A DNA stretch of 46,972 nucleotides, the filler included, from Catajapyx aquilonaris (taxonomy: Eukaryota): the NCBI GenBank assembly GCA_000934665.2. It is 2 parts of 2 records of this genome, joined end to end, with 100 filler letters (N's around TTAATTAATTAA, not from the genome) between each part and the next. Parts side by side here need not be neighbours in the genome. Positions count along the whole stretch, not along the records: positions 23,540 to 46,972 come from KZ539397.1; 1 more part is not named here. One strand, 5' to 3'. Positions 26,128 through 43,696 of the stretch are shown here, piece by piece; position 1 is the first letter of the stretch; each line of letters starts with the position of its first letter. The position numbers and the translations under genes were made by a program. A model generated the notes under the pieces. The model ran no database searches, was not told the DNA's origin, and saw only the letters and a list, made by a program, of their open reading frames with translations.

Positions 26128-26311
26128 AACCGAAGCAGGTTGGCATGGTGGATAAGGCGTCCGACTGCTAATCGGGAGGTCCTGGGTTCGAATCCCGGGG
26201 CCGGCAACCTTGACCGTGGTTTTCTGTAGTTTTCCACGGTCTTTCTAGGATAATTCCGGGGTTGCTTCCGTATAATAGGCCACAGCCGCTTCCTTCCTTC
26301 CCTATCCTTGG
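26128..26311 (+). mobile_element. tRNA-derived SINE, family A (3'-truncated copy)
   Basis: A box TGGCATGGTGG, B box GGTTCGAATCC, anticodon-like arm CCGA-CTGCTAA-TCGG, then body GTGGTTTTCTGTAGTTTTCC...GGCCACAGCCGCTTCCTTCCTTCCCTATCCTTGG. A closely similar copy lies on the - strand at 43512-43696. Confidence 0.85.
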
Positions 26312-29300: not shown

Positions 29301-29725
29301 GTGGAAATATCCAACTGCCAAACGTTGAAAACACAGCTGATTGAAACCCAGCCTTGTCCCCGGTTCTTTTGTCTTTAACATCGATATCTGTCAGAGTTTC
29401 AAGAGACCGGATTGAACAATTTCAATGCCTGTTGAAACTGAAATGTCTGGTATATTAAAATTTTTCTCATATTGTTTCTGAAACGCTGGGGACAGCAATC
29501 GGCATACTGGAAGCTGCATACCAACGAGAGAATACAATGTAATGGATTATTAATATAGTAATAATTATTATTATTATCTTCAGCAAAGGCTTCTAGGTTT
29601 CAAAAGCAGGCATTGTTTTTGGGTGGAACTTATTAAATTTTTTTTTTTTCCTTTTTTTCACTCACTCTCTTGCTCTCACTGTTCCTAATAGCTCTCCCCC
29701 AAATTTTTTGAAGTTTTGGCATCAC

Positions 29726-32700
29726 CTAATCCTTTGCCTCGAAATACTTGTAGGTGGGATTCTCATATCCATTGATCTGCATGTTGGCCACATGTCTTTC
29801 TTCTGGTGTGGCTGCCTGATCTACCTCGACAAATCCCTGTAACAGTTGGTTTCAATTAATATTGTGCATCTTAATAGTAGTTGCAGAGTAGGATTGAAGG
29901 TACATACCTGGTTTTGCGGGGAGCGGCTGTGGCGCCTCCGAAGCACCACAATTCCTACAATCATGGCTGCCATGAGGGCAATTCCTGCAAATGCCAGTGT
30001 GAAATAGATGCTCTTGTTCTCCCTGTGGTACACTTCTCGGTGAACTGAATAGATCTGAAAGACACAGAAATGTAAATACTTTATTTATATCCTTCATTTA
30101 TAGTTGTATTCATATATTCATATTATTGTTATATTCATTTATAGTTATATTTTATATTACACTGACCCCTCATATCCGGAGTTATTCTATATCAATTGCA
30201 TATATTTATTACATTTTTTGCACTTATTGGTGATTTGGGGTACGATCTGGGCTTTTAGGGGAGCTAGGCATGGAGAAACTTCTCATTCAAGACTTCTCAC
30301 ACTGGGAGGCTGAACAAATGAAACTTTTCTACGGCAGGTTTGTTTCATGGATGAGGCGACTTTTTATGTACATCATCAAGAACAATGTGTGTGGTGTAAT
30401 GGTACGAGATATCCTACAGGATAAGATCTCGACAGTAACTCTAGATATGATTGAGCAGGTTAGGTACGAGACGTATATATCGTATTTCTTTATCTTCCGA
30501 TCGAGAAATGAAGCAAAAATCGAAACAAACTAAGGTGAGAACAAAACTTTCATAACATTTCAAAACTTAAGTCATTAAGATATGTCTACAAGTTTGCGAG
30601 TTATAAGGTTTCAAAATCCGCACATTCTGTTTCAATCACCCTGTATTATATTTAAAAGGTGAAACATAGCTTAAGTAGGCCTTCTCTCTCTCTCTCTCTC
30701 TCTCCCTCCCTCTCTAACCCATTTAGATAGGTAGATAGGTGCTAGGAGTTGGTGACGACAACTGTAATTTGCTATCTCCATTGGCCCACATATAACCTTT
30801 GTGTCTTTGGTACATAGGCAATGCGCATTATAAAACTCTCCATGCATCCGTTTTTATACAATTCTATTAATCTTTTGTGATATAAAAATATATGCATGAT
30901 TCTTGAAAATACACTTTTGATGATTGATTGTGGATTGATGCATGTGTCACATTATTTTTCCCTCTTTCCAGAAGCCCAGATAACAAGTTTCACTCTTTTG
31001 CCAGTCTTTTCTAGCAATCCATGCTAGCCCATGAAAAAAGAAGAGACTGATACACACCATTTCTGTGTGTTCCAATTTTCAGATATATACAACCTGATTA
31101 CATAATAAGGACTTCCTTATTCATACTCATTTGAGCAAAAAAAAAAAAAAAGGGGGGGGGGGGGGGNGGTAAAAGTAACTTTATGCAATAGAAAATCCTC
31201 GTTCTCCCCTAAAACAGATTTAAAAACCTGGGTAGTGGTAACTTGTAACTCATTGGTCCAGAGTCAATACATATTTATACTTTTCTGAACCAGTCCTGAC
31301 TTTGCAAACAGAGTAATGCACACAAAGTTGTTTCTAACTATGTTGATTGTCTGCCAGTGAATTCCTTGAACCAAAACAAGTGTAACATGTAGAGGTGAAA
31401 AATACCGCCAGCTAATAATGACATAAAAACAATATACAGGGTGGGGCAAAAGTCCTGGGCGGATTAAAACAACGCAGCATGGCGTAAGTAACGAACAATT
31501 ATATTTTTTTTAAATTACACTACACAGAGAAAGATATGCCATTTATGGATCCAGGTCCAAAAAAGACACTTCTTGAAAACAACACCGGATAGATGTCCAC
31601 CTTTGCGGGCAACACATTATTCCTCCAAACGCTGGACGAAACCCTTCATATAACGTGCTCCAGCATGTCCAGGGGAATGTTTCTCACGGCGTGTCTTATC
31701 TGATCCTTAAGATCAGCCAATGACTGAGGAGGTGTGGCAAACACCAAACAAATTAGTCAAATGTTTCCTGGCCGGGTCATTTCAAGATTTGGGGACATTC
31801 CATGACCGCCGCGGTCGCCAGATTTGACCATCCCCAACTTCTTCCTGTGGGGGTACCTGAAGAGTTTGGTGTTCGCCACATGTCCTCAGTCATTGGCTGA
31901 TCTTAAGGATCAGATAAGACACGCCATGAGAAACATTCCCCTGGACATGCTGGAGCGCGTTATGAAGGGTTTCGTCCGGTGCTTGGGGGAATAATGTGTT
32001 GCCCGCAAAGGTGGACATCTATTCGGTGTTGTTTTCAAGAAGTGACTTTTTTGGACCTCAATCCATAAATGGCATATCTTTCTCTGTGTACTGTAATTTT
32101 TTTTAAATATAATAGTTCATTACTTACGCCATGCTGCGTCGTTTTAATCCGCCCATGACTTTTGCCCTATCATGTACCATGAGTTTCACAATTTAGCTTA
32201 CAACGATATCAGCACAAATGTTGAAATGTCCTCATGTCCTACCCTTGCATATGTGCCACAAAATTGTCCACGCAGGTTGTGGTGTGTGTCTTTTAAGAGC
32301 ACCCAATTGTTTGTTTTCTTCTATGTTGTACTAAGGCTACATAAACCTGGGTACCTGATTAGTGCAGGAACCTTGCAGTGGTGCAAGCAGCCCTTACCCA
32401 AGTAACCTGAGTATGATGGGTACTCACTGAATCTCGGTGAGACAGATTGCAAATGCTTGTGCATGTTTCACTGTCATAGTGCTACGAGTAAATGCTTAAG
32501 AAAACAGTTTGGTGTAAAAATTTCTAGATGAAATGGGCACACTGACTTTGGATTACTCTGCACATGAGTTTTGAACTCAGGCTGTAACTCACAAGTCAGA
32601 TATTTCTTTACACTTGATCTGGCCAAAAGAATCTAACAGCAGGTGATTGACATGCTAGTTATAACATCCTGTACTTGGTATCATTGACAAGAGTAAGGCA

Positions 32701-35700
32701 TGTTTGGTATACTCTGAAGGAAAGTATACGCACCAATTGCCTCAGAAACTGTTCTGGTGTTATGAAATTATTTCAATTTTTTGTGTGCTGCATTTTCCTG
32801 CAACTCTAAATCACATCTTGCATGCAGCAGTTCAGCAATGGAAGGTCTAAAATAATGCGTGTCATAGGCTATGTTTGTTACAAAATACATGGTGTAATGC
32901 ACTCTTTGATAAATTATCATTCCTGACACCCAGGAACTCACCCTAACACAGTCAGAATCAGTGCAATACACATGGCACAGTAATGGTAAGGCATGCAACT
33001 ATTCCACCTTTCCACTGTAAGATCCCTGTGTTCAACAAGAATAAAAAGCACAGGTGTCTCACAAGGTTCAAAACATGGCACAATTATGACAAATCACTGC
33101 AAACCATGCAGGGGGCACAGTGACGTTGGGAACCTCCCAAAATCTAACAAACTACATGGTTTCAACTGAGAGAGTGACTGATATGAATGTAGTGGTATTT
33201 GGATGATTGAGATAGTGGGGTTGTGGGAGAAGAGCTGCCACAGAGTTGTAGCATATGAGAGGTACTATGGGGCTCAAATTGTTTTGGCCACTTTATCCTG
33301 GTCTTGAAGCAACCCTTTGCACAGGCCCCACGCTGAGCAGGTGTGTTTGTGTGTGTGTGTGTGTGAAGGGTTGCTTCAAGACCAGGATAAAGTGGCCAAA
33401 ACAATTTGAACCCCATAGTACAACTTAATAAAACCTTTTCTGCTTCAATTATAAAAATTCAGTTTGAAAAGATTATTCCTTTCACACTCAATGGGCTGAA
33501 AGCAAAAAGCATTACCTACAATTTTCAGAAAAAATTAAATGAACTTGATCATATGGGGCATCAAATGTTCTCCCCCTCAAAATATAGTACCCCAGTTTAA
33601 AAATAGGTCAAATCAGTTGATTTCATATGTCTCAGCATTCCAATGCTGCACTCCTTTCTAAATTACCACTTAATCACCCTTGTTGGATAGAATGCTTTTT
33701 GCATGCAACTTCTTCAATTGCCAAATGCATTCGAGGCACATATTGTAGGCCCTATTCATGTCTGTAGAGTCTGGGCAGTCCATAAAGTGTCAAAATATCT
33801 ATATTATACAAGCCGTGCTGTTTCTGTTTGTTTATTGTACACCGTTTTTCTACAACTTCCAAACGTGGTAGAAGCCTGAAACTTTGTACACTTATGCTAA
33901 GGTATTATAGGAGTGTCCAAAATTACGAAAAGCCATAAAAATCAATGCAGGACTTTCCCAGCAGATGTAGCTGCATGTAGGGTGTGGAAATTTAATGTAC
34001 TTTGGGAATGTTAGAAAGATTCTAGGCAATCATTTTAAGTATAGATATCATGGGGACATGGGTCTCCACAGTGTAGTTACAAAGATAAATTGGCTATTTA
34101 TCACATAGTATAGCATGTCCTGGAAGGTTTGCATCTGACCATAAACAGGGTGCAGCTGAAAAGTCCTGCCTGTCTATGTCTTGGCAAGACACTAACTCTG
34201 GATCACTGGCCCATCATTTACAGTGTCACATAACACACTGAGCATCCCTTACTAGAAACAAGTATCAAATGCAGAGCACAGCAGATTGATACTCTGTAAA
34301 TCATGGTTCAGTGATTGGGAGTTGGTGTCCTTGCCAAGACATAGACATGAGACACCTTTCAAGAGTGTGGTGGGACCTTCCAGGGCATGTTACACTACAT
34401 GATAAATAGCCCATTATCTTGGTAACTATTTAGGCTGTAGAGATCCACAATACCTGTACTTAAAATGATAGCATAAACCCCTCTACCATTCCCCAAAGTG
34501 AAGGTAAGTTAAATTTCCAGACCTTGTACAGGGCTTATTCCCATGCCTTGAGCATTTGCCAAGTAGTACAGCACACATTATTATTGTGACTGTGCCAAAG
34601 TAGTGACAGTTTTGAGTCCCTGGATTGTCCCCTGTTTCCAAACACATCAACTTCAATCTAGAGGCATCTCTCTCTTTCACTACATAAAGACAGCTACATA
34701 GCTTGAGTCCATTTCTGGTATAGAAGGGCAGGGGAGGCCACAGCTGGGGAGATCAGGGCAGAGTCAGGAGAGTAGACCTCCAGTGATAAGACAACAGGTA
34801 CTAGGGAATAGCCATGGCAAATGCATATTCTGAACTTCGGATTTTCTGCAAATCTACTGAGCATGTAGTGGATGTAATTCATCTGGCACCACATTTTCTA
34901 TAATAATGGTTTAAGCACCTTCAAGAACACAAACATTTTCAATGAACTCCATTCTGTAACATCAATTATGACATATCAGAGGCAGGCTTCCTGCTAATTG
35001 TCAGTAATGTGAACTTTCACTGTACGAGATGTAAATGATTCTGGACCAATCATACCACCAATCAATGTAACTGGTCCCCCAAGTCAATTCACATTCCCGC
35101 TGTACCATATTCTGAAGAACCTGAATTTTGATACAATGCTCATCCTGTGAAAGTGGCTCAAAACAGTCAAAACAGCTTCTGGCATACTTTCAAATTACCA
35201 GACTCTTTCACAGACATCCATACCATGGGCTTTGGCTACAATAAATTATATAAAAATAAGCAACTCACAGCTTCATGCGAGATGGAATGAGCTTGCGCAT
35301 GTGCCACTTTAGGCGCTGCAAGCTGATCAGCCTTGTGCTGAGAGGTGGCGGCTGCTGAGTCAGGTTGTGTCGACTCATCCTCCATGCTCTCTGGGTCAAA
35401 CTGTCGGCCCACCTTCTTTCCTTGCATGTTCTGTTCCACCCTCTTCTGTTCCTCCCTCAGCTCCTGACGTTCCTTCTGCCTTTGGGCCTTCCTCTCCCGC
35501 TCCATCTGTCTCTGGCGCTCCTTCTCCTGCATCTTGGCAGTCACCTCTGCCCGGAACCGGTCCAGGAGGTGAGTCTCACTCTCCCGGGTGCGTGCCAGGA
35601 GGGAACCAGGTGTGTCATCCTTACTGCGCAGGGCAGTTGCATAGTCTTCCATCAGCTGACGAATCTTTGCTGACAGTTCAGGGAAGCGGCTGATGGAAAA

Positions 35701-38700
35701 TAAAAATATTTATTAGTGGTAGAATTATCACAACTTGAACACTGAATTCCAAACAAAATTAGTAGCAATGTAAAATTAATTCACTTACACCCCTGCCTCA
35801 GATAATATAAGCTTCTTGTTACTCCTTGACTACCAAAACTACCTCATATATGGGATGTCTTTACTGACAACAACAACAACAGGGTTTCATTAACTTAAAG
35901 GACAGGCATACAGTATGCTAATACAACAGCACAAAAAAAACCAGCAGCTATAAATATTTCTAAAGGTAAGTGACAGTTTTCTATGTGAAACTTGTGGTTT
36001 ACCTGACAATAGAAAAAAAAATCTTAATTTTCAAATGCACAGTATCAGAAAAATGTATGACAAAACCCAGTTAGCATTTTTGGCCCCTCCAGAGAAAAAT
36101 CTAACACAGAAAAATACTGATGGTCTTCACCTCCAACTTTCACCTTGGAGGAATACCTGCAACCTTTTCAACCAGGGATGGAAAAAGTACCGCTTCCTTC
36201 CAAGAAGCGCTTCTTTTTTCCATGTGCAGGGATAGAAAAAGAACCGCTTACCGCCCAAAGAAGCGGTTCTTTTTCCATCCCTGTTTTCAACATATCACAC
36301 CTAAGCATCCCTCCCATAAGCATAAATACGTCGGTATGTATATGTATATTTGACTAGATATTTGGCATGGAACTGTCACATGGAGAAGTAAGAACTGTGC
36401 TCATAAGATCAGTTAAGATTTTACTTGGCAACTTTTCTCGACAATCCTGAAATTTTGAATGTCTGAATTAGCAAAACCTTCTTAAACAACCAACTAAACT
36501 GTAGGTTAACAACAACAATTTGAACTGGAAAGAGCTGATCATATATCAGTTTCATCCAAGTCTGATGACATCATATGAGTACTATTTATGAACTCTAAGG
36601 ATGTGCTTTCATCAGATTCCCAGCCAGGTAAAATATCCATCCAAAACCCCAATTTATCCTGACAAAAGCACTATATTTTAGCACAAGAATCTCCCCTCTA
36701 AGCATTTATATTGATTTCCATTAATTCCCATAGATATGCTTCTATTCCATTGCATTTTCCTTTGATCTCCATGGACTTCCTTTGCATAAAACAAATATGA
36801 CATGTTGATTCATGGCCAAACTACTACCCACTGATCCCAGAGTCTGTCAAAGCAAGGGTAGATGACAAAAAAATAATTCTGCAGGGTATTCATAAATGAA
36901 CTAGAACCATGAAGTCAAAACCGTTTTAGTGGGGATAAACTGGGTGAAAAAGGGATGCTGACATGCCCTCATTTACTGCTGAATTTGTGAAACAGGCTGA
37001 ATGTTACTTCTGAAATTGCAGATGTGTCATCCTAAACAGTGGCCCAGGCATGGGGAAATCGGAGGTCCCCCCCACCCCCCACCCCAAAGCTTTGAAATTC
37101 TTTCAGTAAAAACATTACATATAATTAAGTCGTGATAATTTGGAAAAAGGCTGGAAAAAGGCTAATCCAACCTGCTCAGCATCTGCAAGGACTGGTTGAC
37201 CATCTTGTCAATATCAACAAGGTGCTCCAGGGTGAGGTCACGCTCCCTCTCAGCCTGCTCGAAATTGGTATTGAGAAGGTGACGGTAGTGGGCCACAGTA
37301 TGGTGACGGTCCTTGTGAAGAGCCCTCAGCAACTTCTGGAGGCACTTCTGCACCCGATGAGCCTTCCATATAAAAAAAACAAAGCACATTAAAATTGCTG
37401 CCCCCACACCACCCATTAAGTATAGACCATGCCCCTTTTTCATCATTACGGTCAGCAAGACACATTATTAGCTGGCTTCCATATCACCCCCATGTGGATT
37501 GGAGTGAAGTGTAGCGCCACAGATTCAATTGCGTGCTTATGTGGGAGCATGATTAACTCATCAAATTTGCTCCTTACATTTGGTGGGTTCTCATTGAGGG
37601 CTTCAGTGTAGCAGGTCATAGCCTCCTTCTTGCGTTCATTGATGTGTGCCATCACACGCTGCTGGTGCATTGCCACCAGTTGTCTCTTCTCAGCATTGCC
37701 CTCTTCCTCCAATGCTTGCACTGTCTTCTGGAACCTGAAAACCAAGTTTCATAAATCATTATGTTATGCAACTCTACCATTCAGTGAGCCTAAGTGGATT
37801 TAAGATGGCAACATTGGTGATACTTTTTCCTGAGTTTCTGTACTTTAGTAGGGATCAGCAAACAAGTCTGCTGGCACATACTGTAGTTGTAGAAGTGACA
37901 AAATTGCTTTAAAAACTCACATTGTGGGCTTCCTAGTCTCGCTTGGGTAACAGAGGATAAACCTTTAACTTGCTCATGGATCAAGTTCAGAGGCATTACG
38001 CTCCCAGGACCATCTTCAACATTGTAAAAATTTATTTCCGTAAGGTTAAAAGTCGTTCTCACCTGCACTAGCAAGTGCCTCTGATGGTGTCAGTATGTGT
38101 AAAGTTCTTACCTAATCAGTGCGACTTTTGCGCCTGTTTCGAGTCACATAATTTTTGGATGCGCCCCCCTGCCACCCCTCAGCCCCCAAGGGGACACGCC
38201 CCACCGGTACGTATACAGTAAGTAATCGAAACATCCCCGACAAGCCTTTGGTGCTGGGAAGGCATGTCAAAAATTCCAGTGCTAAAACTTCAACTTATTC
38301 TCTATGTTCATGGGAACTTCGAAACATGATTTTTTTAAAAATCCACAAGAGTCCCCGCCGCCTCCCCCCCCCCTCCCCCTGGCTACATCACTGGGATGTG
38401 TGATTGCCCAACTGCACATTAACAAGTCAAATTATGTTTAAAACTAAAAGCATAACAGATGCAACTTTTTGGGGGGTATCATGTTGCAGGGGCTTGGGAG
38501 AAGCCTTTCAAGCTAAAATCAAATCAACTGCTGCAATACTTGAAAGTTCTTGCAGTGCAACACAACCTTGAACAATCTATTAACACTCAATTAGTTTATA
38601 AAGCCTTACAAGGTACAGTCAGCTAGCATAAAGATGTGGAGTAGTGCTCCCCTGGCAAGTAGAGGAGATGCCAATGTCACAAGTACACTATCAACGTATG

Positions 38701-41633
38701 GTATTCTCAGCATGTCCTAGACTAGTAAGCCTACTCTGGTGCTGTTGGTGAGGGGCAGAGGTCATGCAAGGAGCCCCTGGGCAGAGGAAGAGCTCTGGTG
38801 TATCATCCACATCTTTATGCTGGTGACTTTACATGCACAAGGCATTTCACTATTTCTGTTAAGAAATCTCACCTCAGTGTCATCTTCTTCTTAAACTCTT
38901 CTGCTGCTTTGGTATCAGTGTTCCTCATCTCCTGGTACCTCTCCTCCAGATCTGACCAATCCTTCATGACCTGCAAATGTGTAATAAATTTTAGTGACAT
39001 GACTTGTATCATGTATTTCTATATGGCATGTTCAAATGAAACATAATGTGAGGCAATATCTCAGGAACTATTTGTCTCAGCTGAGTACTAGTGGTATCTC
39101 TGAGTAGGCACTTGCATGGCTAATTTTCATGCAGAATAGTTAGTAGTCAGTATGCATGTAGTGGACAGGGGAGCATTTTATACAAGTCTCCCAGGGCTAT
39201 GCATTCGTCCAACAGGCACAACTCGTCATCATCCTTTTTCCTCATCAAGGAAGGAACTGCACCAGTGGACATTGTCTATTGGATGCCAAGGGTGTGTGGG
39301 AGAACCTGCTTCAGCCACAACACCTTGGTGCAGAAACCCACTAAGGAAATGTACTCTGGAAAGGTCCTCCGTGCACACACGTCTGGACAGAAATTCCCTG
39401 TCAAAAATCCCACCTTTTGAAGAGCGTCTTGGGGTTAAAACAGACATTCCCATGCACCTTCTGCATCCAATGGACAATGTTCACTGGTGCAGTTCCTTCC
39501 TTCATGAGGAAAAAGGATGACAAATCCATAGCCCTGGTAGCCTTGCATAAAATGCTCCCCTGTCCACTACATGCATACTGACTACTAACTACTCAGCATT
39601 AAAATTAGCCATGAAAGGGCCTACTCGGAGATATCACTAAGACTCAACTGAGACAAATAGCTCCTGAGATAGTGCTTCACTTTATGTTTCATTTGAACAC
39701 ACCAAGTACATAGAATAAGTTGTTTTTTTTAACCTGTGGAAAACCTGTAACAGCAGCACAGGAACTTTAAAAAAGGAAGTAAATGCAATATGTGGCAAAG
39801 TTAAGTGCCAATTCTCCAGTTGCATTAAGCCTGTTTTACGAATTCCCTCTGCTCGTTACAACGCAACTTCACACCCCGAACTGCAAGTCATCGCTGCATA
39901 TGGGTGTACAGCAAAACACTGCTTCCTGCCATGTGTGAATATTTATGAAAAGGTTGCTGCTCGCGGCAAAGTATGAGAATGTATGAGCAAGTATGAGAAA
40001 GGGAGGGTCGGAGAGGTATGTGCGCTAGGCCAACCTGGAGTCTGGCAGGCTCAGGGCGGACTCCGGGGCGGGGAGCCGGGTGAGGGCAGTGTCCTGCACC
40101 ACATACGGGGCGAAGGTGGACGAGATGGAGGCAGAAGGACGGAACATTAGCAGCCAGGCGGACTGGGGAAAAGAAGCAAGATGGGGGAGACGAGGAGGTG
40201 AAGGAGGCGTGGATGTAACGTGACTCGATGTGACTTCCTCTGATTGGCTCAACGCGGCAGCATGCAATCGGACTTCTGGAGATTTTGAAGTCGGTAGCTG
40301 GCTCTTTCGGCAGCAAAACAGCTTGCTGCTCATTGTCTTTTAATAAATTGGTTTGCTCCGCGCATTGCTTGTAGTCGCTTTATAACACAAAAAGGGAATT
40401 CGTAAACGGGCTTCAGAGTACTTCAGTTATAAGCTGACCATATTGCCCATTTCAGTTACAGCTTCTTTTCCAATATTATGGCAAGCCTAATTCTTTCTTA
40501 GAACAGCTCTGCAGGTACTTCTGGGGCCAGCTTACTCAAACAATCAAATGATATTGCATAATATAAGTTACGGTACTTGTATGCTGATGAAAGTGACACC
40601 GATGGAGACAATATTTGTGTTGTGCACTTTATTTGCATCAATTTGTAGATCTGGCCCCTGGCAGACTGTATCTGATCCCTTTGCTGGTGCCACTAACAGA
40701 GCCAGCAAATAATTCTCTTAATAGAACACTTTTGCAGATTACTTGGGAGAAGTGGAACAAACATACTGCATATCTAGACACAAATAGCCTCAAATCCCTT
40801 TGATGATGTCCTCAAAGGCTCATTTGTCCCTGACAGCACGACGGTTGTTGATGTCTGTGCTACAATGCACTATACACTAGTGCAATATCAATAAATGACT
40901 GGATACCTCATGACATACAGGGCGTGTGGAAATTTAACATACCAGTACCATCACTTTGGGGGTTGGTAGAGAGAATCTAGACAAACATTTTAAGGATAGG
41001 CATTGTGGGTCTCCACAGCCTAGTTACCCAGCTAATGGACGGCAAACACAAGACATAAAATATCCTGGCAGGTACGCGTCCCTCCTCACAACCTCACCCT
41101 TTCCATTTAAATTTTGAGTGTTCTCATGCAATTTAAATTTAAGATACGATCTCATTAGGTCTAGCAGGTAGTGGCCAAGGCAATGGAAGTGTTGCAGGTG
41201 GTGTCAGTGACATTGAAGCTGGTATAATGCAACCTTTATTTAATGCTAATTATATCAGTACTAGGCTGTGGAGACATGGGGTGAAATTTTCGTCCCACTG
41301 CTTAGAAGTACAGTACCAGCATTGGCACTGGTACTGCTAAGTTATCAGTATCTAGCAGTGGGATGAAAATTCAACACATGATAGGGAGGCATGGTGGTCT
41401 GGTGGTTACACCACTGGCCAGCCAAGCGGGAGGCCGGGGTTCAAATCCTGTCCTCGTCACCTCTGCTTGGCTTTCCGCCTTTCACCCGACATGCAGGGGC
41501 AGAATTGGACTCCCTACACTGCCCAGGGCCAGCAGAAAAGGTCTGGTGTATTTCAGAAAGTCAGAAATGACTATAATTACAGCGCCCTCCCTTGGGAACC
41601 TCCCCTTCCACCCTATCATGGGGTAAATTTTTA

Positions 41634-41693
<60 letters not shown>

Positions 41694-41749
41694 TTTTATT
41701 TTATTTTATTTTCCGTACCCCTTGATGGCCCTATATGGGCCTTTCGGGG

Positions 41750-41799
<50 letters not shown>

Positions 41800-41885
41800 T
41801 TCAACACATGATCTATTAGAACCCATCTACTGTCCCCCAAAGTGACGGCATGTTAAATTTCCACACCCTGTATAGGATGGTGGCC

Positions 41886-41950
<65 letters not shown>

Positions 41951-43204
41951 GGTAGTGTTGACGGACCTTTATTTAGACACATACATTACAATGTCCTTGC
42001 TCTGCTGCAGCGCCCTGGTCCAATGGGTGTAGGGAAGGAGGACATTGTTTCTAGTCATTTCAGACCCTCTTAAATACCAGACCTTTTCTCTTGGCCCTGG
42101 GCAGAGAAGGGAGTGCAATTCTGACCTGACACGTCAGGTGACAAGTGAAAAAATACCCGACCAAGAAGAGGTGATGGGGACGGGATTTGAACCCCGGACC
42201 TCCCACTTGGCTGGACAGTAGCATAGCCACTAGACCAATATGCCCCCCAAGTGTAATATCTTAGCCCAATAAGGCCCTTGTTAAGACATGGAATTGTCAC
42301 ATCACATCATGCATTTGATACATGAAACTTCTGAAATTATCATGTGAATGGCATAACAATCCATGTCTTTGAAAACATACTCTTCATCCAAATTTATTGT
42401 GCCTGGATTGAGGTAGTGGATAGCTTTAAGATAAGGCAGTGGGTCAGCATTGTCATTTTTAGCTTGAAGGCCATTTATGCTACAATATTTTGGAGCAGGC
42501 ACATCACAGGGTTTTTCAAGTGTTTTCAGATCCTTGCAACCTAATTATCATCATCTTATTGGCTGCAATATGTTCTCATGTTTCAATGTGGGGAAAAAAT
42601 TTATGTCATTTCATGTCTCTTCACACCTCATGCATAACCACTGCACTTAATGCAACCAAATCAAACCACAATCCAATGATTAATATGGGAAAAATCCAAG
42701 AACACACAGCACAGCACTGAGCAAATGTACGAACAAGTTCTCATTAGATACTAATTAGAAAAGTAGCTAAAATTGCCAAGTTGCAAACTACCTTGGTGAT
42801 CTTTTCCTTGTGCATCTCTTCTAGACGCTGCTCTGCCTCCTTGAAGGCCTGGTGCTCAATGCGAGGGTCAAAGTGGGTAAAGTATGGATCAGGAGTGGGC
42901 ATATCAGGTGCATGCGAGGATGAGGACGGGTGGGTCTCCTGTGGAGCAGCAGTGGACGAGGAGGAGGAGGTGCTGCCAGACCTCGGGCTAGAATTGGTTG
43001 ACTTGTCCGCCTCTAAATCATCATCTTCATCATCTTCCTCATCAGATTCACTGCCATCAGCAGCATCATCCAACATCTCCTCATCAGGATCATCATCGTC
43101 ATCATCTGCCTCGTCAGCAGCCTCACTCTCCAGAGGTTGTGGAACTTCCAACTTGACTTTCTCCTCCTTCACCAGGTCTAAGTCTGACTTGGGTGACTTC
43201 ATGT
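29726..43204 (-). CDS. Appl: Amyloid precursor protein-like, 5'-partial (acidic region, E2 domain, TM, YENPTY tail)
   Basis: Exons 43204-42792, 38970-38873, 37734-37578, 37362-37172, 35689-35269, 30054-29908 and 29836-29726 join in frame. Asp/Glu-rich tract, then [49 protein letters not shown] (E2), [24 protein letters not shown], tail [37 protein letters not shown]1-domain exons were not found in the window. Confidence 0.95.
31437..32174. mobile_element. Tc1/mariner-derived foldback element (two inverted 3' ends, transposase C-terminal relic)
   Basis: TA|CAGGGTGGGGCAAAAGTC...GACTTTTGCCCTATCATG|TA. Arms 31437-31749 and 31864-32174. The + strand from about 31764 reads [66 protein letters not shown], the [16 protein letters not shown] motif of Tc1/mariner (rosa/DD41D-like) transposases. 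Confidence 0.9.
33262..33421. mobile_element. 160-bp MITE-like hairpin with 56-bp arms
   Basis: Arms 33262-33317 and 33366-33421 are complementary except at one position; the loop contains (GT)n. Confidence 0.8.
33978..34526. mobile_element. Long palindromic mariner-type MITE, family M, copy 1
   Basis: Ends (T/C)AGGGTGTGGAAATTTAA...GTTAAATTTCCAGACCTTG|TA with extensive internal arm pairing (e.g. TGTCTATGTCTTGGCAAG / CTTGCCAAGACATAGACA). Same termini and subterminal sequence as 40918-41870. Confidence 0.8.
36173..36283. mobile_element. 111-bp hAT-type MITE with 8-bp TSD
   Basis: TTTTCAAC|CAGGGATGGAAAAAGTACCGCTTC...GAAGCGGTTCTTTTTCCATCCCTG|TTTTCAAC: perfect 8-bp TSD (36165-36172, 36284-36291) and Ac-like CAGGGATG termini. 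Confidence 0.88.
39030..39698. repeat. Long inverted repeat (arms about 270-290 bp), unclassified foldback
   Basis: 39030-~39322 pairs with ~39426-39698, including a 45-bp perfect stretch (39137-39181 / 39547-39591). The ORF track shows the same peptide [14 protein letters not shown] on both strands. Confidence 0.92.
39828..40412. mobile_element. Non-autonomous TIR element (PIF/Harbinger-like) with GC/CpG-rich interior
   Basis: TTA|AGCCTGTTTTACGAATTCCCT...AGGGAATTCGTAAACGGGCT|TCA: roughly 45-bp imperfect TIRs and 3-bp TNA flanks. Confidence 0.65.
41279..41377. mobile_element. PIF/Harbinger-like mini-MITE (same family as 6134-6243)
   Basis: ATG|GGGTGAAATTTTCGTCCCACTGCT...AGCAGTGGGATGAAAATTCAACAC|ATG. 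Confidence 0.75.
41383..41798 (+). mobile_element. tRNA-derived SINE, family B, full length with (AAT)n tail and 14-bp TSD
   Basis: A box TGGTCTGGTGG, B box GGTTCAAATCC, (AAT)n tail. TSD ATTCAACACATGAT at 41369-41382 and 41799-41812. Confidence 0.88.
41633..41949. repeat. Three (AAT)n microsatellites (41633-41693, 41751-41798, 41887-41949), serving as SINE tails
   Basis: Pure AAT runs adjacent to SINE 3' ends. Confidence 0.9.
41887..42248 (-). mobile_element. tRNA-derived SINE, family B variant with a different 3' tail
   Basis: The - strand reads GGGGGCATATTGGTCTAGTGG..GGTTCAAATCCCGTCCCCATCACCTC..CAGAATTGCACTCCC..TGCCCAGGGCC..GAAAAGGTCTGGT..GAAATGACTA, homologous to 41384-41573, then an unrelated tail ending in (ATT)n. 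Confidence 0.8.
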
Positions 43205-43454: not shown

Positions 43455-43696
43455 TCATCCTGACGTGTGTGCTGCCCGCTCGACACACACCATGTAACTT
43501 ACATGGTGGGACCAAGGATAGGGAAGGAAGGAAGCGGCTGTGGCCTATTTTTACGGAAACGACCCCGGAATTGTCCTGGGGGAACCGTGGGAAACCACAG
43601 GAAACCACGGCCAGGGTCGCCGGCCCCGGGATTCGAACCCAGGACCTCCCAATTAGCAGACGGACTCCATATCCACTACACCAACCTGCTTCGGTT
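43455..43696 (-). mobile_element. tRNA-derived SINE, family A, longer copy with structured 3' tail
   Basis: The reverse complement matches 26128-26311 over about 185 bp and continues into a hairpin-rich tail (CACCATGTAA-G-TTACATGGTG; GTGTGT..ACACAC). Confidence 0.85.

Follow-up and report, generated by a model that had tools for sequence, protein, structure and literature searches.

The APPL Gene and the Four-Exon Block

The window analyzed here (46,972 nucleotides of DNA from Catajapyx aquilonaris, along which all positions are counted) carries, on its minus strand, an arthropod APPL (amyloid-precursor-like) gene, in which four consecutive exons, termed here the block, encode most of the E2 domain along with the linker. 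The exons recognized are as follows:

42792 to 43204, minus strand: upstream APPL exon, found by tblastn; acidic region and start of E2, ending in EKITK
38873 to 38970, minus strand: block exon 1, 98 nt; APP_E2 profile positions 44–74 (Pfam, E = 9e-11)
37578 to 37734, minus strand: block exon 2, 157 nt; APP_E2 profile positions 77–128 (Pfam, E = 1e-21)
37172 to 37362, minus strand: block exon 3, 191 nt; APP_E2 profile positions 130–190 (Pfam, E = 1.5e-22)
35269 to 35689, minus strand: block exon 4, 421 nt; charged linker from E2 to the membrane, ending in ISHEA
29908 to 30054, minus strand: transmembrane exon, 147 nt, phase 0 to 0, beginning IYSVHREVY, with a cag/ATC acceptor at 30054
29726 to 29836, minus strand: last coding exon, GFVEVDQ to YFEAKD, plus stop

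Together, block exons 1–3 match positions 44–190 of the 190 positions of the APP_E2 profile (PF12925), placing the gene in the APP/APLP/APPL family, and no significant Pfam family match was found for block exon 4. The order of parts is also that of the family, with E2, the linker, the transmembrane segment and the YENPTY tail colinear at 42929–29729, as judged by tblastn with three arthropod APPL proteins (P0001, P0033, and P0076) as queries. The window does not reach the E1 exons. The upstream exon ends in a phase 0 donor (AAG/gt at 42792/42791), and its 5′ border, near 43204, is placed tentatively, from an AG and the open reading frame.

Each of the four block exons is bordered by AG on its acceptor side and GT on its donor side, and their lengths (98 + 157 + 191 + 421) sum to 867 nt, or 289 codons, with no stop and with phase 0 at either end. 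The first codons of the block are GTC ATG AAG (VMK), with ATG in second place, and a second AG, 9 nt inside block exon 1, makes a candidate tandem acceptor. The borders, the phases and the stop-free frame thus confirm the in-frame block proposed in the initial annotation, and the exon phases likewise agree with its proposal that two predicted junctions, a 42792-to-30054 skip and a 35269-to-38970 back-splice, would both be in frame. The introns flanking the block measure 3821 nt and 5214 nt, and no extra exons were detected in either, all 642 tblastn matches (from 120 proteins) falling on the known exons or on their read-through.

Family-M Copies and Neighboring Repeats

Each flanking intron holds one copy of a repeat family designated M, these being the only two copies in the window. 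The elements most relevant to the block are:

40918 to 41876, unstranded: upstream family-M copy, broken, keeping its ends only, with nested repeats in the middle
41384 to 41576, unstranded: SINE-like repeat nested in the upstream family-M copy
39029 to 39699, unstranded: unrelated palindromic element with arms of 186 nt (89%), its nearer end lying ~58 nt upstream of acceptor 38970
33978 to 34532, unstranded: downstream family-M copy, a complete fold-back with a self-fold minimum free energy of −243.6 kcal/mol

The block had been described as bracketed by twin palindromic elements, and both copies do exist, but only the downstream one is a complete palindrome, its halves aligning in inverted orientation over 583 columns (65.9%) and carrying terminal inverted repeats. 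The upstream copy is a palindrome of its ends only: ~115 nt at 40924–41038 and ~57 nt at 41820–41876 resemble the downstream copy, and the two ends align with one another over 47 nt (76.6%), with the SINE-like repeat, a small palindrome (41271–41378) and (ATT)n runs lying between them. Terminal homology extends ~6 nt past the ends first assigned, to 34532 and 41876. A TA beside CAGGG...CCCTG, a candidate target-site duplication, is readable at the upstream copy and unclear at the downstream one, with boundaries good to about ±6 nt.

By blastn, the two copies share three matches only (E from 1e-14 to 1e-16), one of 119 columns in inverted orientation (74.8%), and two in direct orientation, of 51–57 nt (82%) and 91 columns (73.6%), a similarity that, at the level of sequence comparison, is beyond chance. 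No other inverted matches between the two flanking introns were found by blastn at E 1e-8. The copies are old and have diverged to a similar degree in every comparison (66–82%), and thus nothing suggests that pairing has been preserved. At least five further palindromic elements are present in the window (39029–39699, 31435–32176, 33262–33421, 36170–36286, and 13483–13626), and in a stretch so full of such elements it is unremarkable that some exon block is bracketed by two copies of one family.

The SINE-like repeat has an inverted copy at 42049–42248 in the same intron (77% over 202 columns), and the two pair in the predicted fold. No tRNA was called in it by ARAGORN, and the sole basis for a label of “tRNA-derived” is a T-arm-like motif read by eye. 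Six matches to Rfam miRNA families between 29000 and 44000, all on palindromic repeats and far below gathering scores, were rejected as generic hairpins. The contigs of one sequencing run, X1 (kind unknown), were placed in 29600–43100 on repeats only, with none on the four block exons or the exons flanking them, and are uninformative for splicing or expression.

Predicted Pairing across the Block

The folding model points to the two block-proximal arms of the M copies as the partners that could bring the flanking introns together:

40921 to 41037, minus strand: block-proximal arm of the upstream copy, one duplex strand, 1947 nt upstream of the 38970 acceptor
34412 to 34523, minus strand: block-proximal arm of the downstream copy, the other duplex strand, 742 nt downstream of the 35269 donor

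The predicted duplex of 41037–40921 with 34412–34523 has an energy of −124.0 kcal/mol (z = −16 versus shuffles) and comprises 93 bp (37 GC, 49 AU, and 7 GU), interrupted, with a longest helix of 12 bp. The arm duplexes within the copies are weaker, at −74.9 and −97.6 kcal/mol, with z-scores of −12.5 and −7.6. Among 5146 window pairs compared between the two introns (mean −39.0, standard deviation 9.7), pairing of the M arms occupies the first three ranks (−112.1, −98.6, and −81.3). When the two whole copies are co-folded, 137 intermolecular pairs form, with a ddG of −11.6, and cross-pairing is kept in the co-fold minimum-energy structures (ddG −11.6 and −17.8), whereas eight control stretches gave a ddG of 0 to −4.3 and 0–15 intermolecular pairs. 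Arm duplexes and co-folds were used in place of a full-length RNAduplex value (−352 kcal/mol), which was discarded as its loops are strung along the whole length and it is not comparable with self-fold energies.

In the model, then, complementary sequences in both flanking introns are able to pair, and in silico such pairing can compete with self-folding of each copy, as had been proposed. The initial annotation had cautioned that divergence might leave cross-pairing weak; the copies are indeed only 74–82% identical, but the predicted pairing is strong, and, with inter-copy and intra-copy duplex energies now computed, cross-pairing is not negligible and cannot be dismissed on energetic grounds. 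Each arm lies 0.3–0.85 kb from its partner within its own copy and ~6.6 kb from its partner across the block, and the 38970 acceptor is transcribed ~4.4 kb before the downstream copy; these distances and this transcription order would favor self-folding.

Relation to Known Circular RNA Loci

Complementary repeats of the same family in flanking introns are a layout known to favor circular RNA. Inverted Alu pairs reportedly drive exon circularization in mammals, in work from 2014 by Zhang et al. and by Liang and Wilusz, and laccase2 is said to be flanked by DNAREP1 repeats, in work by Kramer from 2015. The APPL locus resembles these systems of reverse-complementary matches (RCMs), such as inverted Alu repeats, in having same-family repeats in both introns, pairing across introns set against pairing within an intron or element, and long introns. 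It differs in that the M repeats are ~25% diverged, form helices of no more than 12 bp and are each palindromic, and in that the APPL junction is predicted only.

Closer in phylogenetic terms are the neuronal circular RNAs of Drosophila, most of which are described as flanked by RCMs, many of them transposon-derived, with deletion abolishing one circle (PMC12404201). Like those loci, APPL is a neuronal gene of an arthropod whose flanking introns carry transposon-derived RCMs, and, as in the ELAV model, the upstream intron would have to persist until the downstream repeat is transcribed. In Drosophila, both ELAV binding and circle production were demonstrated, circGlut1(17,29) being one example (PMC12404201); at the Catajapyx aquilonaris locus both are hypothetical. 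For fly Appl itself, Supplemental Table S1 of that paper contains circAPPL(4,4) and circAPPL(8,8) only, both single-exon, of 171 and 165 nt by coordinates, with logCPM of −4.6 to −6.1 and of class “other” (PMC12404201). No title among the papers listed in our literature search for an Appl circle concerns Appl.

The human gene offers another example. As reported, circAbeta-a (hsa_circ_0007556) comprises APP exons 14–17 (524 nt); its detection relied on RT-PCR, RNase R treatment and sequencing, and 16 other forms are also described (PMC7650678). Like the candidate discussed here, it is a four-exon circle from an APP-family gene, found in brain, with a coding role proposed, but its exons are those of Abeta and the transmembrane segment, not of E2, and its frame changes at the junction to reach a stop (Abeta175; PMC7650678). 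In rice, miniature inverted-repeat elements on both flanks, the arrangement seen around our candidate, were reported for 72 of 2354 circular RNAs, the authors considering other mechanisms to dominate (PMC4647462), and mammalian circular RNA loci have been associated with young transposons (PMC8516420).

Transposon Relics or a Circular RNA

We consider it probable that the two M copies are ordinary intronic transposon relics in an arthropod APPL gene, capable of plausible pairing of the circular RNA type but of little or no consequence. One small fold-back (MITE-like) family would have inserted into two different introns, and both copies would then have decayed to ~75–82% mutual identity, one of them being split by later insertions. 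As the family is palindromic, the exon-proximal end arms are still complementary, and an interrupted duplex of ~110 nt would, according to the thermodynamic model, loop out the four E2/linker exons. In the cell, normal linear splicing is most likely, with any back-spliced by-product at a low level at most; we infer that the pairing, documented in silico alongside the exon structure and the repeat homology, has little if any influence in vivo. Since the block consists of whole coding exons in phase 0, its in-frame length and stop-free, “endless” frame are to be expected and carry no sign of design. Several points go against a relic-only view: the cross-intron pairing is stronger than expected, heads the ranking of window pairs and persists in the co-folds; the geometry is like that of known circular RNA loci (long introns, repeats at 1.9 and 0.7 kb from the nearest splice site of the block, and a circle size of 867 nt); and RCMs flank most neuronal circular RNAs of Drosophila (PMC12404201).

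The alternative of a real circular RNA we regard as unlikely. In that case, the M arms would pair before the upstream intron is spliced out, and joining of the 35269 donor to the 38970 acceptor would give an 867-nt exonic APPL circle, probably non-coding, that would accumulate in neurons. Such an outcome would be consistent with the top cross-intron duplex of all 5146 window pairs sitting exactly at the M arms, with a cross duplex competitive with self-folding, with the length of the flanking introns, with repeat-driven circles being established in flies and mammals (PMC12404201; PMC8516420), and with the reported production of circles by APP-family genes in human brain (PMC7650678). However, the junction is a prediction, the repeats are diverged, with short helices and 1.9 kb between the nearer arm and the acceptor, the kinetic order favors folding of each copy on itself and prompt splicing of the upstream intron, and the two fly Appl circles tabulated in PMC12404201 (Supplemental Table S1) are single-exon and rare.

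Exon skipping by loop-out, with the same duplex joining the 42792 donor to the 30054 acceptor, appears far less likely still. It would yield an APPL protein lacking E2 positions 44–190 and the linker. The junction would be in frame, and in-frame isoforms with a shortened E2 are annotated elsewhere: Frankliniella occidentalis X3 is missing precisely the equivalents of block exons 1 and 2, and eight Bombus entries and Venturia X4 are without 58 residues at the block start. However, these variants drop the first part of E2 only and need no transposon, and the product of the full skip, retaining a mere stub of E2, would be unlikely to fold. None of the 72 homologues spanning the region (with both anchoring exons) is without the whole block, the shortest anchor spacing (145 residues, in P0121) probably reflecting a faulty gene model. 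Nor was a circular permutation, exon 4 followed by exon 1, found in any of 128 homologues; in one of them, P0053, the upstream exon and exon 1 are locally duplicated. Such indirect evidence on the circle or the skip is neutral to negative.

We give even less credence to a bistable RNA switch, in which self-folding would allow normal splicing and cross-pairing over 6.6 kb would lead either to a translated circle, producing secretion-incompetent E2 concatemers, or to an mRNA for an E2-less receptor. Least probable of all, and unsupported, is rolling-circle translation of an APPL circle from the second-codon AUG into E2-linker concatemers with an ISHEA/VMK junction: the length is a multiple of three, with 289 sense codons and an in-frame AUG, and endless frames are reported to be translated in transfection assays of circEGFR and circTau (PMC11724312), but any in-frame block of coding exons gives a stop-free circle automatically, the circle itself is hypothetical and contains no IRES-like element, the AUG lies within the 9 nt that the candidate tandem acceptor would remove, and E2 would be made in the cytosol with no signal peptide. 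The endless-frame (iORF) circles circEGFR and circTau 12->10 are, like the APPL block, divisible by three and stop-free, so that multimers are possible in principle, but they are experimentally detected circles of 249 and 288 nt, as opposed to a hypothetical one of 867 nt (PMC11724312).

A circle at this locus, if produced, would parallel, in an invertebrate, the circular RNAs of the human amyloid precursor gene, and would provide a clean test of whether transposon copies of such age and divergence can still drive back-splicing. At present, the locus mainly illustrates how easily such layouts arise in this repeat-rich genome, and the stop-free frame of the predicted circle, a consequence of exon phase, provides no evidence of function. 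For the biology of APPL, the in-frame isoforms of other insects that are without the first part of E2 are probably a more useful lead.

The APPL gene and its E2 exon block

An arthropod gene for APPL (amyloid-beta-like protein) is represented by its 3' half on the minus strand of the window, where colinear tblastn matches to three arthropod APPL proteins identify it:

42929-42786, minus strand, start of E2
38973-38872, 37736-37575 and 37359-37168, minus strand, E2
35694-35275, minus strand, linker
30054-29908, minus strand, transmembrane segment
29839-29729, minus strand, YENPTY tail

Exons 38970-38873, 37734-37578, 37362-37172 and 35689-35269 (block exons 1 to 4) have exactly the borders proposed in the initial annotation, with AG acceptors (contexts CAG, CAG, AAG and CAG, in order) and GT donors (GTGAGA, GTAAGG, GTTGGA and GTGAGT), and they add up, as counted there, to 98+157+191+421 = 867 nt, or 289 sense codons, running from GTC ATG AAG to ...ISHEA. 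Block exons 1-3 cover positions 44-190 of the 190 in the Pfam APP_E2 profile, block exon 4 has no significant Pfam family match, and identity with hemimetabolous insect APPL is 85-90% in block exon 3 and in the transmembrane exon. The upstream exon ends at 42792 (AAG/gt) and the transmembrane exon starts at 30054 (cag/ATC), both in phase 0, so that the reading frame would be kept in the two predicted products, a circle back-spliced from 35269 to 38970 and an APPL skipping from 42792 to 30054. The flanking introns showed no additional homologous exon; all 642 matches, from 120 proteins, fall on known exons or their read-through.

The flanking family-M copies

The block lies between two copies of family M, a palindromic MITE-like repeat, one upstream (40918-41870) and one downstream (33978-34526), with homology reaching about 6 nt past these ends. 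Both exist, and the observation of exons bracketed by M copies is confirmed; the RNA products proposed from it are predictions. In the downstream copy the fold-back is complete, with halves aligning inverted over 583 columns at 65.9%; the upstream copy, likewise described as palindromic, keeps its ends alone (40924-41038 and 41820-41876), and the intervening stretch of approximately 780 nt contains a small palindrome (41271-41378, resembling 6122-6255), a SINE-like repeat and (ATT)n runs. A TA target duplication is readable at the upstream copy and not clearly so at the downstream one. The copies share three matches, one inverted (119 columns at 74.8%) and two direct (51-57 nt at 82%; 91 columns at 73.6%), and as all comparisons, within and between copies, range from 66 to 82%, there is no sign that a particular pairing was preserved.

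The nested SINE-like repeat (41384-41576), in which ARAGORN called no tRNA, has an inverted copy in the same intron (42049-42248; 77% over 202 columns), and the two pair mutually in the predicted fold (168 of 193 nt). Within and beside the upstream M copy, at 41634-41950, are three long (ATT)n microsatellite runs.

Predicted pairing across the block

Duplexes between 120-nt arms on the pre-mRNA strand were computed with RNAduplex and scored against 100 dinucleotide shuffles.

Predicted duplexes of family-M arms
Upstream copy, own two arms: -74.9 kcal/mol, z -7.6
Downstream copy, own two arms: -97.6 kcal/mol, z -12.5
Distal cross pair: -59.5 kcal/mol, z -5.2
Exon-proximal cross pair, 41037-40921 with 34412-34523: -124.0 kcal/mol, z -16.2
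Same-arm controls: -35.6 and -38.8 kcal/mol, z -0.5 and -2.6

The concern that copies so diverged would pair weakly across the block is thus not borne out in the folding model, in which the exon-proximal duplex (93 pairs, 37 GC, 49 AU and 7 GU, in 13 helices, the longest of 12 bp) is more stable than either copy's own. Co-folding the whole copies gives -582.4 kcal/mol versus -570.8 for the two self-folds (ddG -11.6), with 137 intermolecular pairs at both arm pairs, compared with ddG of 0 to -4.3 and 0-15 intermolecular pairs when the downstream copy was co-folded with eight control stretches of other intron sequence, each about 950 nt long. When more of the surrounding sequence is included (40700-42400 plus 33800-34700), the main cross helix stays, with 83 pairs and a ddG of -17.8. 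In a scan pairing every 120-nt window of one intron with every such window of the other (5146 pairs, mean -39.0, sd 9.7), the three best values (-112.1, -98.6 and -81.3) all lie on these M arms. Cross-pairing is thus not negligible relative to self-folding, so that the energetic outcome named in the initial annotation as refuting its proposal is not seen, and the premise that the M copies may pair across the block is supported in silico, by a model that takes no account of what it would cost to close a loop of about 6.6 kb, of transcription order, or of proteins and helicases. An arm's own partner would lie 0.3-0.85 kb away, and the downstream copy would be made some 4.4 kb after the upstream acceptor.

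Relics, circle or skipped isoform

Our favored reading, which we hold to be probable, is that the M copies are neutral relics of transposons and that any circle would be a minor by-product at most. A real repeat-driven circle of the block we consider unlikely. The layout is the standard one for circularization driven by complementary repeats. In flies, transposon-enriched complementary matches are reported to flank most circRNAs, circGlut1 is abolished when such matches are deleted, and the upstream intron must stay until the downstream repeat is made (PMC12404201); young transposons have been tied to mammalian circRNA loci (PMC8516420). In rice, only 72 of 2354 circles are reported to have MITEs on both flanks (PMC4647462). 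For the fly Appl gene, Supplemental Table S1 of PMC12404201 has five rows, all circAPPL(4,4) or circAPPL(8,8), of 171 and 165 nt by coordinates and at logCPM -4.6 to -6.1, grouped as "other" and without significant change in elav mutants. None of the 128 homologues fetched has exon 4 followed by exon 1. Over 29600-43100, contigs from one sequencing run of unknown kind match only repeats and cover no Appl exon; they are silent on back-splicing, skipping and expression.

An isoform skipping the whole block appears very improbable: of the 72 homologues, among the 128, that match both the upstream and the transmembrane exon, none misses the block, the spacing being 145-365 residues, with the shortest from a gene model seemingly reading into an intron (P0121, from Ephemera danica). 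That entry is without equivalents of exons 1-3, and in the Nilaparvata lugens entry (P0053) the segment of upstream exon and exon 1 is locally duplicated; both oddities look like annotation artefacts.

Rolling-circle translation of a block circle appears less probable still. Reports of endless frames exist for circEGFR and circTau (PMC11724312), and human APP circAbeta-a (exons 14-17, 524 nt) is reported to change frame and then meet a stop (PMC7650678). An endless frame would arise in any phase-matched block of coding exons, because all it takes is the absence of a stop and a length that is a multiple of three; by arithmetic, sub-blocks 98+157 and 191+421 and the gene's 147-nt exon also qualify.

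Shortened E2 forms and a candidate tandem acceptor

In-frame variants shortening E2 are annotated in other insects (homologues P0009/P0011, P0113-P0120 and P0107/P0111). One example is Frankliniella occidentalis isoform X3, in which ...EKVTK is joined straight to THRVQKC..., a junction that leaves out precisely what corresponds to block exons 1 and 2; other examples are eight Bombus entries and Venturia canescens X4, without 58 residues from the same boundary. By this analogy a shortened E2 form, if present, would be better precedented as a skip of exons 1 and 2 (255 nt) than as the 867-nt loss, and would need no transposon.

Block exon 1 contains a second AG, 9 nt in from its acceptor border (38961-38970, minus strand; ...cag/GTCATGAAG/GATTGG), and the difference between Andrena APPL isoforms X2 and X3 is exactly the matching tripeptide, VMK. 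The sequences suggest a conserved tandem acceptor, whose use would remove the second-codon ATG.

Other repeats in the window

Further palindromic elements are as follows:

39029-39699, about 670 nt, unrelated to family M; arms of 186 nt (89%) plus inner arms of 95 nt (82%); stops some 58 nt short of the 38970 acceptor, on its upstream side
31435-32176, downstream intron, large and well preserved; arms of 216 nt (90%) and 100 nt (95%); a contig of the sequencing run aligns to either arm with some 13-15 differences
33262-33421, short
36170-36286, short; matched without mismatch by a 111-nt contig of that run (depth 81, highest among the listed pieces)
13483-13626

Elements 36170-36286 and 33262-33421 hit Rfam miRNA families below threshold, as is typical of MITE hairpins. 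The segment 39835-40406 (about 570 nt), bounded by 37-nt inverted ends (76% complementary) around a GC-rich core with a CCAAT-like motif, is possibly another non-autonomous element. The window's strongest long-range inverted repeat, 26128-26311 with 43512-43696 (185 columns, 87.6%), is better preserved than the M pair; its arms lie about 3.4 kb past the stop codon and upstream of the acidic/E2-start exon, respectively.
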